IMG/VR virus record: IMGVR_UViG_3300021471_000006
Span: 32,001 to 96,000 of that record
Reading direction: 5' to 3' (one strand)
Source of the DNA: a virus
Length of the DNA stretch: 64,000 bases
Both the position numbers and the translations under genes were made by a program. How positions within the stretch are numbered: position 1 is the stretch's first letter; every line of letters begins with the position of its first letter. Of this stretch, positions 13,149 through 42,232 are shown piece after piece. A model generated the notes under the pieces. The model was not told the DNA's origin. It saw only the letters and a program-made list of their open reading frames with translations, and made no database searches.

Positions 13149-13346
13149 ATGGATAAGTTAGACTTTGAGAACAAAATATTAGAGTCTCTAAAATCTCTTC
13201 TAGGTTATGACGATAGATTAGTAATTCAAGAGGCTAAGATACATATTGGAACAAATATGCTTCCGGAAATAGAAGTGAAGTCTGTTATTGCTCCACACGG
13301 AGCCAAGTGCAAAGTAGTAGATAACTGGAGAGAAAGAATAGAATGA
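13149..13346 (+). CDS. hypothetical protein with the C-terminal W-box
   Basis: Ends KVVDNWRERIE. Confidence 0.6.
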   Translation: MDKLDFENKILESLKSLLGYDDRLVIQEAKIHIGTNMLPEIEVKSVIAPHGAKCKVVDNWRERIE

Positions 13347-13639
13347 AAAATTACAAAGCAAGTTGCAGAAAATGTGGAGAGAGTGTTGATATGGATAATT
13401 TAAAGAACCACAGATGTAAATTCTGGAAAAGATGGATTTTTTCTCCAGAAGTTACATGGGCTACCGCCTGGTACTTATGGATTCTAGGATGCTTTACAGC
13501 TTTAGCTTATATAGATAATCATTGGACATTCTGGATTTTTTTACTATTAGAGCTTACAGTATTTTTGTTTGACGAGAGTCTAAGAAAATTTTTAGAAGAA
13601 GGTGAGAATTTTGAAGTTAAAGAAAGGCAAAATAATTAA
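13343..13639 (+). CDS. small membrane protein with an N-terminal Zn-finger
   Basis: CRKC...H.C followed by two hydrophobic segments. Confidence 0.55.
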   Translation: MKNYKASCRKCGESVDMDNLKNHRCKFWKRWIFSPEVTWATAWYLWILGCFTALAYIDNHWTFWIFLLLELTVFLFDESLRKFLEEGENFEVKERQNN

Positions 13640-13988
13640 ATACTTGAAGTTTCTTAATAAATATAAAGAGCTAGTAGGTTTTGCTGGATGGAAAGTATTT
13701 TTGTATAACAAAGTTGAGCCTAATGATTCTATAGCTAGAATCTGGGCAGATGCCGCCGAAAAGGAGCTAGAAATCTATCTGTTTGAAAGTTTTCTAGAAC
13801 TGTCTGACGACCAGCAAAAGAATGTCTTGTTTCATGAGTTAGTCCATGCGAGAGTTGCTTATTTTAGAGTATTATCTAACAGGGCAACTGGCTTTCTTGA
13901 AGAAGACTTGGTCAATGATTTGGTTAGAGGATTTGAGAAATTTGGTGATTTTAAATGGCTAAAAACACGAAGGAGCAAGAGTACATAG
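13602..13988 (+). CDS. putative zincin-like metallopeptidase
   Basis: LFHELVHA (HExxH) with downstream EE. Confidence 0.6.
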   Translation: MRILKLKKGKIIKYLKFLNKYKELVGFAGWKVFLYNKVEPNDSIARIWADAAEKELEIYLFESFLELSDDQQKNVLFHELVHARVAYFRVLSNRATGFLEEDLVNDLVRGFEKFGDFKWLKTRRSKST

Positions 13989-14266
13989 ACGACCTAGAAG
14001 CAAGAGTAGGCAGATTTTATACTGAAACAAAAAGAAATCTAAGATTTAGTGCAAGAGGCGAGTGTGGAGAGATAGACTTCATGGGACGTGCAGCAAACAA
14101 CGGCTGGCATGTTTATGAGATAAAGGCTACAGGCCATTCCAGAGCTTTAAAAAGAGCCAGAAAGCAGCTGGAAAGAGCTAAAAGATGCCTGCCATATCAA
14201 GTCTCGGACTTGTTTATTTATATAGGGAGCTGTCAAGAGCTGATACCATATAGAGGACAAAAATGA
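13955..14266 (+). CDS. PD-(D/E)XK nuclease-fold protein
   Basis: GEIDF...VYEIK...ARKQL. Confidence 0.65.
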   Translation: MAKNTKEQEYIDDLEARVGRFYTETKRNLRFSARGECGEIDFMGRAANNGWHVYEIKATGHSRALKRARKQLERAKRCLPYQVSDLFIYIGSCQELIPYRGQK

Positions 14267-14624
14267 TTCGTTATTCTAGAGCAGGCATCCCATATGGGCA
14301 GTATGAGAAAGCAGAGAAAAAATATATTGAGAAACCAAATTCGGTGGGCTGGACTAATATTCTTTTAGTTGGGCTCTTAGCTCTTGTAATATTGTTGTAT
14401 CTGTTAACATAGTCAATAAGCTGCAGCTCGTAACACCAAAAAACTGGCTTTTTTCTCCCGAACCCGGGAAACTAGAAGTATCTTCTATTTAGATTAACTT
14501 CTCATAACAAAAATGGTTCTCCAGGAGTACCGAGGACGGCGAAATGGCTAAAACTTCTCTCCAGCTACACACGGCGTACTATTCTTTATACGCCATAAAG
14601 CAGAATGACGCCACTTCAAGCAAG

Positions 14625-14757
14625 ACTGTTACTACTATGTAGTGGTTGCGGCGGAGTCGCCATTATCTCGACAATTATCTGTAAAATCTCGTGTCGCCAT
14701 TTTATCGACACTCTAAAAACTGTTACTACTAATAAGTAATAAACTACTGTTACTACT
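14625..14757 (+). repeat. three direct repeats ACTGTTACTACT
   Basis: Exact copies at 14625, 14719 and 14746 in non-coding DNA. Confidence 0.85.
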
Positions 14758-14892
14758 GCCTAGTGAAACAAGCTTCTCTTTATAAATCTTTTGGTTTTAA
14801 ACGTCTTTTTTTGTCTTTACTTCCTAGTAGTAAAAAGTGCTTTTTCTCGTCTTAAAAAACCGTTTCACTATTAATAAGTAACAACCCAAAAA

Positions 14893-14908
14893 CAAAACAT
14901 TTAAATAC
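14893..14908 (+). promoter_or_regulatory. archaeal BRE-TATA promoter (probably leaderless transcript)
   Basis: AAAACATTTAAATA about 22 nt before ATG 14930. Confidence 0.7.
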
Positions 14909-14929
14909 TTACTAAAATACTATATACTT

Positions 14930-39571: not shown

Positions 39572-39584
39572 TCCTATTCCTAAA

Positions 39585-39599
39585 CGAAACATTTATATA
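39585..39599 (+). promoter_or_regulatory. archaeal BRE-TATA promoter
   Basis: CGAAACATTTATATA. Confidence 0.75.
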
Positions 39600-39633
39600 G
39601 TTAAAGATTTATTATTATTTCTATGGTGAGTTT

Positions 39634-39918
39634 ATGGCTAGACTTAAAGCACTTGATAAGGCATTTCTTTTAGTTAAAAATGAAAATGTTTTTAACAGCA
39701 GTGAGACGCCTAACTACGAATATTGGATAGTGAAAGGCAATGGTAGACCCACTTATGATGTTATTTACCATAAGAGAAAAGACATTTACACTTGCGGATG
39801 TAAGAATATGCGATTACTGCCCTGTAGTCATATATTAGCAGTTAAGATAGTTAAAGGGGAAATAAATGGAAAAAATAATAAGACCTATAAAAGAAATAGT
39901 TTGGAACTTGTTCTTTAG
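39634..39918 (+). CDS. SWIM zinc-finger protein
   Basis: YTCGC...PCSHILAV. Confidence 0.8.
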   Translation: MARLKALDKAFLLVKNENVFNSSETPNYEYWIVKGNGRPTYDVIYHKRKDIYTCGCKNMRLLPCSHILAVKIVKGEINGKNNKTYKRNSLELVL

Positions 39919-40681
39919 GAACGATATCGTATTTGTACAAAACCATTATGTTCCGGCACAACAATTACAGTTAATAGCAGAATTAGAAACTACCTTAGAT
40001 ATGGTAAAACAATTACAGAAAAATTCAGAAGAAGAAAACAAGGAACTAGAAAAGTATATTACAGAACTTGAGGAAAAAATTAGAGTACTTAAAAACGAAG
40101 AACGAACAGTTACCAAACCCGAGTGGCTAAAGTATGCTAGTGTTTTCATTCCGAAGGTTATAGTGCCTTCAAAATACGGAGACAGAACAGTTTCTATACA
40201 ACCTAATGATATATATACAAGTTCTAACAGAATAAGAAATATAGTAGCACAAAATAAATGGAAGAAACTTTATATGTCCGACAAGAAAGCCTGTGCTTAT
40301 GAAATTTGGAAATATGTAATAAAGGCTATAAAATACGAACTAGATAAGTCAGAGGATTGGAGATATAGTCCTACTACACTAGCATATGAGAAAGGTGATT
40401 GTGAAGACGGAACCATACTATTTCTAGACCTTGCTAAAGAAGCCGGTTTTAAGGCGGATGAAGTTTTTAATGGACTGGGGTGGGTAAAAACCAATAGTGG
40501 AAACTTTGGACACTCCTTTCCAATATTAAACTATGGAGAAGGCTGGTTTATTTATGAAACTACCATTGACTATGTGCCAAGCTCTCCTATGAAGTTCGAC
40601 GGAAGTAACTATGACGCTTCTTTTGGAGTAGTGAATTGGAGATTTGCTGGAAAGATAAACAATTCCAAGCAACAAATATAG
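39866..40681 (+). CDS. coiled-coil plus transglutaminase-like cysteine protease domain
   Basis: SPTTLAYEKGDCEDGT, FGHSF, IYETT (C-H-E triad). Confidence 0.78.
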   Translation: MEKIIRPIKEIVWNLFFRNDIVFVQNHYVPAQQLQLIAELETTLDMVKQLQKNSEEENKELEKYITELEEKIRVLKNEERTVTKPEWLKYASVFIPKVIVPSKYGDRTVSIQPNDIYTSSNRIRNIVAQNKWKKLYMSDKKACAYEIWKYVIKAIKYELDKSEDWRYSPTTLAYEKGDCEDGTILFLDLAKEAGFKADEVFNGLGWVKTNSGNFGHSFPILNYGEGWFIYETTIDYVPSSPMKFDGSNYDASFGVVNWRFAGKINNSKQQI

Positions 40682-41544
40682 GTGAGAAGAATGGTTAAAG
40701 AAAAGATACACCGTGGAAAGGCTAAACAATCTGCTATAAACGAATTGTGGAAAGAACACGAAAAGAAAGAGAAAGAGAAACAACGAAAAATAAAGCGATT
40801 TAAAGCATATAAAATTTTAGACTAGTATTTATACTAGAAAGAAAAAATAATTGAGTTTTGGTATGTTTACCTGCTCCCAGTGGCAAAATTATGAAACAGT
40901 TGATTACCAATGAGAAAAACACACCATTTAATAAACATCTTTAATAATATATGTATGTTGTTAATAGTAGTTATAACAGTATTAAGAATGTTTTAACAAC
41001 CTATATATGTTTTAAGACTAGTTATATATTTTTAACGAACAGTTATATAACATCGTTGATGGCGTTATTCGTCATATAACTAAGGGAGGCGATTCATTTT
41101 GGGAATACCGGAAACATTTGAAGTCATTTGGAGCGGCTGTAACCATACAGAGAAAGAACGTGGCTCTGTCTTTGATGGTGATTATAACCGTTTCTGTGCT
41201 AAATGTGGCAATCTATTGACAGGCACTTGGCAGTGTATTTTGTGTAATGTAAAGCCAATTAAGATAGACATAGATGTCGAAAAGATAAAAGCACAACTAG
41301 AGATTTGTCCTAAGTGTGGAGAATTTTTTAATTATCAACTTAGATAGGACAATGGACGAGATTTTAACATTAGAGGAAACAGTACGGCTTCTTCTAGAAG
41401 AGAAAATAGAGTTTGTTGATTTTCTTAGCGGACCGCCCCAAATAAGACTTTTTGAGCACAATACGTGCCACTATTATAGACTTAATCTGGACAGGAGACC
41501 ATTGGTTTATGAACATTATGCTTCCCATTATGTAGGTGAGATGA

Positions 41545-41904
41545 ATGAAAAAACAGGAAAGAATAAATCAGGCTATGAGATTATTGAATAGTTCTTTTAG
41601 GACCGACTTTAATTCTATTAGATTAAACACACACAACACTTTAGAACACGAAATAAGTAAACTTATAGAAGCTTATAGACTTATTAAAGATGATAAGAAG
41701 AAAGTTATTACAGAGGCGATATTCCATAATGGAACTAGAGCGGACATATTTATTCCAGAGGACTTTAGAGTGATAGAAATTCTACACTCTGAAAAGGAAG
41801 CAGAGGCTCTAGAAAAGACTGGAACATATCCTGAACAACTTGATATTACTCTTAAGACAAGTGAAGAGGTTTTAAAAAATGCCGGAAATTTATTTTACCA
41901 ATGA
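41545..41904 (+). CDS. putative restriction-endonuclease-fold protein
   Basis: TEAIF..G.RADI.....VIEILHSE. Confidence 0.5.
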   Translation: MKKQERINQAMRLLNSSFRTDFNSIRLNTHNTLEHEISKLIEAYRLIKDDKKKVITEAIFHNGTRADIFIPEDFRVIEILHSEKEAEALEKTGTYPEQLDITLKTSEEVLKNAGNLFYQ

Positions 41905-42232
41905 TAGAAGCATAATTGATACTTTTTATGACTTTTATTTAACGGACAATATTTCTTCTCAAGAAACAGCTGAAACTGATAATATTTTAAGTAAATTAAC
42001 AGAGAAATACGGGCTTGCAAACATATATATAGATTTTGATTTAACACAAGAGATAATCAATATTACTTGCGTATCAAAAGAGAATACCGCTTATAAGACT
42101 GGGATAACAATGCGATTATATAATGAGGCGATGGACAAGATACATTTAATTGAGAACAGTATTAAAAAAGCTGTGCATTTTTTAGACATTTCTAAAAAAA
42201 TCTCTTGGAGAGAAATAATAGAGAGGCGATGA
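41879..42232 (+). CDS. hypothetical protein with W-box
   Basis: Ends KKISWREIIERR. Confidence 0.62.
   Translation: MPEIYFTNDRSIIDTFYDFYLTDNISSQETAETDNILSKLTEKYGLANIYIDFDLTQEIINITCVSKENTAYKTGITMRLYNEAMDKIHLIENSIKKAVHFLDISKKISWREIIERR

Follow-up and report, generated by a model that had tools for sequence, protein, structure and literature searches.

The 64,000-nucleotide stretch of viral DNA analysed here (hereafter the window; bases 32001-96000 of the 109,485-bp IMG/VR viral record IMGVR_UViG_3300021471_000006) encodes about 17 small proteins that share a short tryptophan-centred peptide, the W-box, in most cases at or near their C-terminus. Nine related viral genomes or fragments, forming one syntenic clade, were recovered. 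The tag is present in eight of them, and more than 100 carriers were counted over eight related genomes or fragments, including one genome (G007) whose tail is not a W-box. The box is a portable handle at the C-terminus, kept by selection, and its codons double as a ribosome site. We hold, with moderate confidence, that this handle serves for docking and is read by one common co-evolving partner or process in each virus.

The module consists of a short linker (K or R at -4, I or V at -3), a helix N-cap residue (S, N or D at -1) and an amphipathic helix of one to two turns, opening with the invariant Trp and carrying a hydrophobic residue at +4 (positions are numbered with Trp as 0, from -4 to -1 before it and from +1 to +4 after it). 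It terminates a lineage-specific, greatly expanded family of SH3-like barrels in a clade of tailed viruses with probably archaeal hosts, and is also borne by unrelated small proteins, i.e. an acidic Zn ribbon, the protein encoded after the large terminase gene (TerL), Zn fingers and membrane proteins. The solvent-facing positions +1 to +3 are written with purine-only K, R and E codons that double as the Shine-Dalgarno (SD) site of the coupled next gene. This role accounts for the preference for R or K and, in the window and in one relative (G001), for the placement of the box exactly five residues ahead of the stop. As all the carriers of one genome share its version of the peptide, we infer that what constrains them in common is a binding partner, which would use the tail as a docking handle.

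A previous reading of the window, made from the sequence alone (the sequence-only reading), had listed 17 copies of the motif. All 17 are present, and the positions by which they had been named correspond to the first codon of each carrier gene. An 18th, decayed copy (N-F-W-R-R-H-L) was found at 23651-23737. Matches to the pattern [SN]W[RK]xx[ILV] number 23 on the plus strand of the window and one on the minus strand, and across the whole 109-kb genome it is clustered at window positions 13.3-42.2 kb. Among 112 called proteins, 17 matches were obtained, 16 of them inside the last 16 residues, whereas 2000 within-protein shuffles gave means of 0.96 matches overall and 0.06 in the last 16 residues. 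The terminal position that had been proposed holds for most boxes, but those of 24244, 33331, 35188, 36540 and 41879 have 6-12 further residues after them and that of 34555, as had been noted, is at the N-terminus. The proposed Ile or Val at -3 was likewise too strict, since the Ile stands at -2 in 41879, 35004 and 34555, and -3 is Ser in 24244 and Arg in 33331.

We tabulated 73 W-box carriers from six of the genomes or fragments. At positions that had been left free in the search, -4 is K or R in 63 carriers and -3 is I or V in 69, for backgrounds of 16% and 14%, respectively. Position -1 is S, N or D (helix N-cap residues), +1 is K, R or E in 70 of the 73 carriers, and +4 takes I, L, V, M or F, in a variety of codons. 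The codons for Ser, Arg, Ile and Asn vary freely, Ser being drawn from two unrelated codon families (AGY and TCN); the AGT, AGC, TCT and TCG codons previously noted for the Ser of the window boxes were confirmed. In G001, a 47-kb viral contig, the Arg at +3 is encoded by AGA, AGG, CGA, CGG and CGT. The last 33 nt of the G001 carriers show 76% identity in DNA and 72% in protein, versus 34% and 10%, respectively, for the preceding 33 nt. At identical residues, the same codon is used in 0.573 of the pairs, for 0.525 expected from codon usage. By this measure the synonymous sites are saturated, as an old divergence under amino-acid selection would leave them, and recent gene conversion between the tails is therefore ruled out. 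The free choice of codons and the near-random silent sites bear out the earlier proposal of selection on the protein rather than a DNA repeat. Moreover, the Trp and the S, N or D preceding it are kept in orthologues of other viruses, so that the lack of conservation envisaged by that reading was not found.

Each genome has its own version of the tail. All 29 tails of G001 follow K/R-I-x-N/D-W-x-x-R-I/L/F-x-stop, with Arg at +3 in 29 out of 29. In G002, a 111-kb relative, +3 is Glu in 18 out of 18 tails (K-[IV]-T-N-W-[KR]-x-E-[ILVM], then 1-9 residues). The fragments L132, L133 and L134 carry tags as well, L134 with [ND]-W-[EQ]-x-E-[IV], i.e. Glu or Gln at +1. In G008, 15 tails fit [TSN]-W-[KR]-x-[RH]-Y, with Tyr at +4. 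The W-box is absent from G007 (IMGVR_UViG_3300031952_000008), where 18 tails read [P]-K-[TNS]-L-M-D-L-x-x (e.g. K-T-L-M-D-L-K-I); these tag genes lie at L144:5900-19000 and at the end of L145, and the same block of ubiquitin-like (Ubl) genes as in the window is present. Ordinary SDs are in use in G007, and L-M-D-L is not an SD. Once stripped of their tags, G007 bodies are homologous to W-box carriers: one with 51% identity (E = 9e-23), a Zn ribbon (E = 7e-12) and eight hits of the barrel hidden Markov model (HMM). The acidic Zn ribbon bears the local tag in six genomes or fragments (window, G001, L132, L134, G008 and G007), and the post-TerL protein bears the W-box in three (window, G002 and G005). 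In G005, tag-bearing proteins are present and the contig stops where the arrays would lie.

Thus, unrelated carriers agree in their tag within a genome, and related bodies differ in it between genomes, as would be expected if all the tails of a virus had to fit one partner or process that varies from virus to virus. Such concerted variation is what the previously proposed docking on one hub predicts, and it is difficult to square with a purely intramolecular cap; no hub was found. A tag on 15-30 genes per genome, with silent sites saturated, that is re-tuned or replaced genome-wide is unusually clean comparative evidence for a tag-receptor pair. Shared tails on many unrelated early proteins point to a single hub organising much of the accessory proteome. 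The candidate partners are the Ubl/E1/E2-like/JAB machinery (by synteny only), the packaging machinery, PCNA and a host factor.

Most of the carriers belong to one superfamily. In the window, about 11 form a single fast-diverging SH3-like barrel family with an N-terminal KFKVGD, and six have other architectures: 13149, the Zn fingers 24244 and 35004, the acidic Zn ribbon 33331, the membrane protein 36343 and 41879. Six carriers align from the K-F-K-V-G-D strand to a C-terminal V-F-E-x-x-L-E-x-x-K-I-x-N-W block, and five more share a barrel-type N-terminus. The diversity of domains that had been claimed is thus partly real: there are at least five or six unrelated non-barrel architectures, but about two thirds of the 17 carriers are barrel paralogues. 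The matches behind the PARP-type Zn-finger assignment of 24244 and 35004 lie below threshold in Pfam (PF00645, 26.0 and 21.1 bits for a cut-off of 39.3, with partial coverage). Pairwise BLAST of the tail-less bodies showed little similarity; an iterated HMM of the tail-less barrel body recovers 43 of the 73 carriers, and the SH3-like barrel superfamily amounts to about 80% of them. The AlphaFold2 (AF2) model of 26869-27120 (predicted local distance difference test, pLDDT, 81.8) is a five-strand small barrel with a short helix at W78-L82. Its best Foldseek matches are CAP-Gly, YorP and nitrile hydratase beta, with E values of only about 1e-2, and its Atlas match is a viral SH3_12 cluster (TM 0.83). 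With this model and the HMM recovery taken together, the majority of the carriers are SH3-like small beta-barrels.

No Pfam family covers the carrier proteins. Pfam and PHROGs together gave only phrog_22041 (unknown function), for one member, and a cluster look-up of the carriers returned only 'hypothetical protein'. By exhaustive hmmsearch with the profile, we found 304 relatives. Some 20 of them, single-domain proteins of other samples, have retained L-E-L-x-K-I-x-N-W-[KR]-x-x-[IL], 1-7 residues ahead of the C-terminus. Among these 304 relatives, no multi-repeat protein of the same barrel has the box, and a Citrobacter phage homologue is also without it. Most carriers have the same fold as the phage SH3-like barrels (YorP, phrog_22041, viral SH3_12-like) and the Sso7d-type proteins with a C-terminal helix, but the homologues outside this clade lack the terminal Trp helix. 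To our knowledge, a common Trp helix at the C-terminus is not a defining or recognised trait of any of these families.

The tag arrays enclose a ubiquitin-like operon made up of genes for a methyltransferase-like protein, a Ubl candidate (104-128 residues), an E2-like protein of 494-546 residues with a conserved H-x-H...P-C-F-G motif, a JAB-position protein and a ThiF E1. The E1 matches Pfam ThiF at 8e-21, and the Ubl, E2-like and JAB-like proteins of the window operon gave no hit against Pfam. Tag genes flank this block in all eight genomes or fragments in which the region was recovered (window, G001, G002, L132-L134, G007 and G008), so that the co-occurrence previously suggested is found in every such relative, within a single syntenic clade. 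The Ubl candidate (window 28376-28759, L009:13442-13804 and L130:5694-6062) ends with an invariant E-I-K-S-A, replaced by E-I-H-S-A in L133, I-N-S-S-M in G007 and V-D-S-S-L in G008; Gly-Gly is found at none of these ends. It is conceivable, if doubtful, that the tails plug 15-30 diversified SH3-like binders and a few small proteins into the viral Ubl/E1/E2-like/JAB machinery, which would form a ubiquitin-like ligase with interchangeable substrate receptors, an archaeal-virus analogue of the F-box, SOCS-box and PRANC systems. If so, it would be the first case of an adaptor library serving a Ubl system in prokaryotes or viruses; we know of none described for the Bil/Bub-type systems. If the receptor is otherwise, the carriers would still represent an undescribed protein family, with no Pfam model, and a clear double coding of a peptide signal and a ribosome site. 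In our literature search, no account was found of this tag, nor of a Ubl operon in archaeal tailed viruses. With its protein of Ubl size, E2-like protein, JAB-position protein and ThiF E1, the operon described here resembles the Bil/Bub-type prokaryotic operons (PMC11601596), but it is virus-encoded and its Ubl ends with E-I-K-S-A, not Gly.

Several points weigh against docking on a common partner. No binding partner of the tag was found. The genome-specific versions are not phylogenetically independent, coming from nine relatives of one syntenic clade. For the same reason, the link with the Ubl operon is a suggestive co-occurrence and not an independent test. Between the Arg-type and Glu-type genomes, the Ubl, E2-like, JAB, E1 and methyltransferase-like proteins each show 0-3 scattered columns with an acidic-to-basic swap; such columns are too few, and too confounded by phylogeny, to point to a receptor, and are uninformative. 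Common descent explains most of the sharing, about 80% of the carriers being one superfamily. Lastly, in the barrel carriers, the C-terminal helix may pack on its own domain (residues 71-80 of the 26869 model have a pLDDT of 81).

This last point leads to an alternative in which the box is a structural cap or a self-association helix of the barrel (cf. Sso7d and chromo-type proteins), the non-barrel carriers being deletion fusions whose tail was kept for the ribosome site of the next gene. The helix modelled at residues 78-82 of the barrel with a pLDDT of about 80, the structural neighbours that align over almost the full length, and the predominance of barrels agree with a cap, as do the fusion or deletion relics at 23651-23737 and 34555 and the N-terminal copies in G008. 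Nevertheless, homologous bodies in G007 tolerate an unrelated tail, and the barrels of multi-repeat proteins and of phage CVT22 do without the box. The tail is also conserved far above the barrel that it would cap (72% vs. 10% identity). Moreover, non-barrel orthologues retain the tail across genomes, in the case of 33331 even where it has no SD role. In the AF2 model of this Zn ribbon, built on a shallow alignment of four sequences, the body has a pLDDT of about 80 and the linker and box of about 45; the box, a short helix, is detached from the body. We thus consider a cap unlikely.

The junction could also be chiefly a DNA-level recombination joint for the shuffling of mini-gene cassettes, with the peptide as a passenger. 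The order of the tag genes relative to the backbone does differ between genomes: the 23415-type gene precedes the Ubl block in the window and directly follows E1 in G001 (reverse complement, rc, 22305) and in G002 (L130:9743). Mini-genes have thus changed place with respect to the conserved backbone. Relics are located exactly at junctions, and 12 of 406 pairs of G001 joints share at least 20 identical bases. From the relic 23651-23737 and the fused junction of 34555, genes are therefore born and lost at junctions. A recombination joint is nonetheless quite improbable: synonymous sites are near random (0.573 vs. 0.525), identity drops at once to 34% on both sides, the longest exact match averages 9 nt, and substitutions keep the residue class, not the bases.

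Still less probable is a tail acting not as a non-covalent docking motif but as a substrate handle for the viral Ubl enzymes, processed, adenylated or conjugated near its C-terminus. The arrays do flank the Ubl/E2-like/JAB/E1 block wherever the region was recovered, and several G002 tails end with Gly-Gly. The last residues of the tails, however, vary (K, E, I, GG or long extensions), and the E-I-K-S-A end of the Ubl is unlike the tag. The Gly-Gly ends of G002 were rejected as Ubl-like termini, their codons being a GGAGG SD.

We then come to the ribosome sites. The SD sites of this virus are of the GGAGGTGA type, and in-frame NGG-AGG codon pairs occur at gene ends only. Within the box, TGG-AGG or AAG-GAG doubles as the SD of the overlapping next gene (ATGA). 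The box is five residues before the stop in nine window carriers, six of which have the next ATG exactly 14 nt after TGG, as ATGA. In G001, 26 of the 29 array genes have a TGA stop, overlapped in 25 of the 26 by the next ATG, and the TGG-to-ATG distance is exactly 14 nt in 25 of the 29 boxes. Where an ATG follows 11-19 nt downstream, 46 out of 48 boxes have an SD core within TGG and the four following codons; among the remaining 25 boxes, 14 do (Fisher p = 6e-5). Boxes that no start follows tend to have TGG-AAA and no SD core, and 11 of the 73 boxes are without SD core and without coupled start. In G002, either no start follows or it comes 14-25 nt past TGG, and the SD frequently falls in Gly-Gly codons behind the box.

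R or K at +1 and the fixed terminal position are therefore explained by the box carrying the SD of the next gene. As the peptide is present in both coupled and uncoupled boxes, there are two overlapping codes, selected separately. The null model considered in the sequence-only reading, i.e. motifs driven by the SDs of overlapping genes, thus accounts largely for R/K at +1 and for the exact terminal position but leaves the box itself unexplained. As in other coupled ATGA junctions, there is a TGGAGG, AAGGAG or GAGAGG core (here within the box), the next ATG overlaps the stop, and SD cores are enriched only before starts. Unlike in these, the peptide is conserved beyond the SD footprint, is kept without coupling, and its differences between genomes are those of a peptide rather than of an SD. 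An independent peptide layer is added here to an otherwise ordinary coupled junction. That the motif is a mere by-product of coupling, i.e. TGGAGG or AAGGAG at a fixed distance before ATGA and read in frame, is scarcely credible and is contradicted by the data: the SD core of 46 out of 48 coupled boxes, the 14-nt spacing in 25 of the 29 G001 boxes and in six window boxes, the T that precedes about half of the GGAGG sites in this genome and the SD-made look-alikes described below all fit it, but positions -4, -3, -1 and +4 have no SD role and are yet 86-100% conserved, with conservative swaps and free codons, eleven boxes have no SD core or coupled start, in G002 TGG stands 14 to 25 nt ahead of the next start and the SD is frequently in Gly-Gly codons after the box, L134 has Glu or Gln at +1, and the L-M-D-L tag of G007 is not an SD and coexists with ordinary ones. 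A nascent-peptide effect on termination was also rejected, as the distance to the stop varies in G002, L134 and G008.

Look-alikes made by the SD were observed on sugar-pathway enzymes of the window, at 4314-4919 (R-E-W-K-D-V-I-I-K) and 4895-5926 (L-Q-S-W-E-I-R-K), just before ATGA overlaps; they lack the -3 and -1 residues of the box. In addition, several genes at G001 rc 7750-9273 end with M-E-V-T-K-R, E-V-R-K or K-E-W-R, i.e. the full GGAGGTGA SD read in frame, and these ends are a C-terminal 'motif' made solely by the ribosome site. Gene callers and motif hunters must therefore separate peptide signals from motifs of this kind.

Shared C-terminal docking tails are known from other systems: the PIP-box of archaea and eukaryotes (consensus Qxx[LIM]xx[FYW][FYWL]), the clamp-binding motif of bacteria and the clamp-binding tails of phage T4. 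Like them, the W-box is short, lies near the C-terminus, has a hydrophobic residue three positions before an aromatic one and is found on different folds, in a virus that encodes PCNA. The I/V at -3 and the Trp at 0 fit the PIP-box, but Gln at W-6 was found in none of the 73 carriers and +1 is K, R or E in 70 of them, so that there is no second aromatic residue. Furthermore, the carriers number 15-30 per genome and are mostly tiny proteins of unassigned role. The W-box fails the PIP-box definition and, by analogy, would work like it as a motif. The F-box and SOCS-box are helical box domains of about 40-50 residues docking on a ligase scaffold. As in these and in poxvirus PRANC proteins, variable small binding domains are combined here with a constant box, and the genes adjoin ubiquitin-like enzymes. 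The likeness previously drawn to these boxes does not extend to size, the W-box having only 9-10 residues, and identity falls to 10% just upstream of the conserved part. No Skp1, cullin or scaffold homologue was recognised in the operon by Pfam. The comparison holds as logic only.

Table 1. W-box genes of the window, embedded ubiquitin-like block and sites of a second C-terminal motif (window coordinates unless another genome is named)
Position	Strand	Feature	Tail or remarks
13149..13346	+	non-barrel 65-aa protein directly after TerL	V-V-D-N-W-R-E-R-I-E-stop; ATGA overlap with 13343
23415..23654	+	barrel-like 79-aa protein	K-V-T-S-W-R-K-L-I-E-stop
23651..23737	+	relic of internally deleted family member	M-K-F-K-L-G fused to D-L-E-L-N-N-I-N-F-W-R-R-H-L
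23724..23951	+	KFKVGD barrel	R-I-D-N-W-K-K-V-I-E-stop; ATGA overlap; barrel HMM 4e-12
24244..24513	+	Zn-finger protein, weak zf-PARP match	S-V-S-W-R-A-R-I-E, then 8 residues
24631..24975	+	barrel-like, start uncertain (TTG 24631 or ATG 24760)	K-I-K-S-W-R-E-K-I-R-stop; ATGA overlap
25596..25820	+	barrel-like 74-aa protein	K-V-K-S-W-K-R-L-I-E-stop; ATGA overlap
25817..26056	+	barrel-like 79-aa protein	K-I-K-N-W-R-E-Y-I-E-stop; next gene from TTG 26049
26869..27120	+	KFKIGD barrel, 83 aa	K-I-K-S-W-R-E-L-L-K-stop; ATGA overlap; AF2 model
27117..27326	+	KFKVGE barrel	E-I-D-N-W-R-K-I-I-D-V-stop; barrel HMM
28376..32693	+	Ubl, E2-like, JAB-like and E1 genes (context, not tag)	embedded between tag arrays
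33331..33654	+	acidic Zn-ribbon protein	K-R-K-N-W-K-N-I-I-E, then 5 residues; no SD core, no coupled start
34555..34809	+	barrel with N-terminal box	M-N-K-I-N-W-K-K-Q-L-E, then L-P-S-V-G-D
35004..35186	+	Zn-finger protein, weak zf-PARP match	G-P-I-S-W-K-E-R-I-G-stop
35188..35430	+	KFKVGD barrel	K-I-N-N-W-R-Q-V-I-C, then 5 residues; TGGAGG 8 nt before ATG 35409
36343..36543	+	protein with one transmembrane helix	K-I-K-S-W-R-K-R-I-E-stop; ATGA overlap
36540..36833	+	KFKVGD barrel, uncoupled	K-I-K-N-W-K-L-K-L-E, then G-R-L; gap and tRNA-Ala next
39344..39571	+	KFRIGD barrel, uncoupled	K-I-S-S-W-K-K-V-I-C-P-stop; barrel HMM
41879..42232	+	non-barrel 117-aa protein	K-K-I-S-W-R-E-I-I-E-R-R-stop
44493-44747		terminal-Phe motif	K-S-L-F-stop
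G002 L131, genes ending at 6878, 11895		terminal-Phe motif	
G001 rc, genes ending at 5568, 6442, 7264, 7502, 10123, 14802, 37913, 39063		terminal-Phe motif	

Among the carriers of Table 1, the 13149 protein is negative with the barrel HMM; its positional counterparts after TerL in G002 (L131:4300-4557) and in G005 have the W-box at their end too. The G001 orthologue of 23415 (rc 22305-22631, BLAST E = 8e-11) carries a W-box of the G001 type, and G002 L130:9743-10003, which resembles 23415 by eye only (Y-K-P-G-T-K-L type), has a tail of the G002 type. The TGGAGG of the relic at 23651..23737 sits 10 nt ahead of the 23724 start. The box of 24244 is not the SD of the next gene, whose start lies 35 nt past TGG. 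From its sequence, 34555..34809 looks like a fused gene junction; two similar N-terminal box copies were found in G008. A membrane-only tag carrier comparable to 36343 occurs in G001 (rc 31790-32053). The W-box gene at 36540-36833 is uncoupled because a tRNA-Ala gene follows it. This tRNA-Ala (TGC), at 36951-37024, overlaps the 5' end of the open reading frame called at 36960/36966, which probably starts farther downstream.

A LysW-like Zn-ribbon protein (Pfam E = 1.7e-9) is encoded at window 32605-33030, between E1 and the acidic Zn-ribbon carrier. We also observed a second recurring C-terminal motif, made of a hydrophobic residue, any residue and a terminal Phe (K-K-D-L-F, E-N-L-F, P-L-F, D-F-S-F), on larger, mostly unrelated proteins. 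It resembles docking tails of the clamp or SSB type.

G001 was found through a DNA pattern for the extended motif; it is syntenic with the window, with identities of 57% for TerL, 65% for RadA, 52% for Ubl and 37% for the E2-like protein. Searches of IMG/VR with the family B polymerase gave no useful relative, nor did a search there with P0093. The KFKVGD pattern returned a single match, an unrelated multi-domain protein, and the E2-like protein had no match in GTDB genomes. A scan of IMG/VR for I-x-N-W-[KR]-x-x-I-x-ATGA yielded, among the matches listed, out-of-frame noise almost throughout apart from G001.

The window has a G+C content of about 33%, with genes almost all on the plus strand. 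Among its genes are those for a large terminase interrupted by inteins, a family B polymerase, an intein-bearing class II ribonucleotide reductase, a RadA/Rad51 recombinase and PCNA. The nearest relative of the polymerase is that of a Halorubrum tailed virus (28% identity). The virus is a tailed one, and its host is probably archaeal given RadA, PCNA, the intein-bearing genes and this haloarchaeal virus polymerase. LAGLIDADG-type inteins were found in a DegT-family aminotransferase (window 317-2602), in the large terminase, which has two Hint regions (8990-13051), and in the ribonucleotide reductase (49938-52946).

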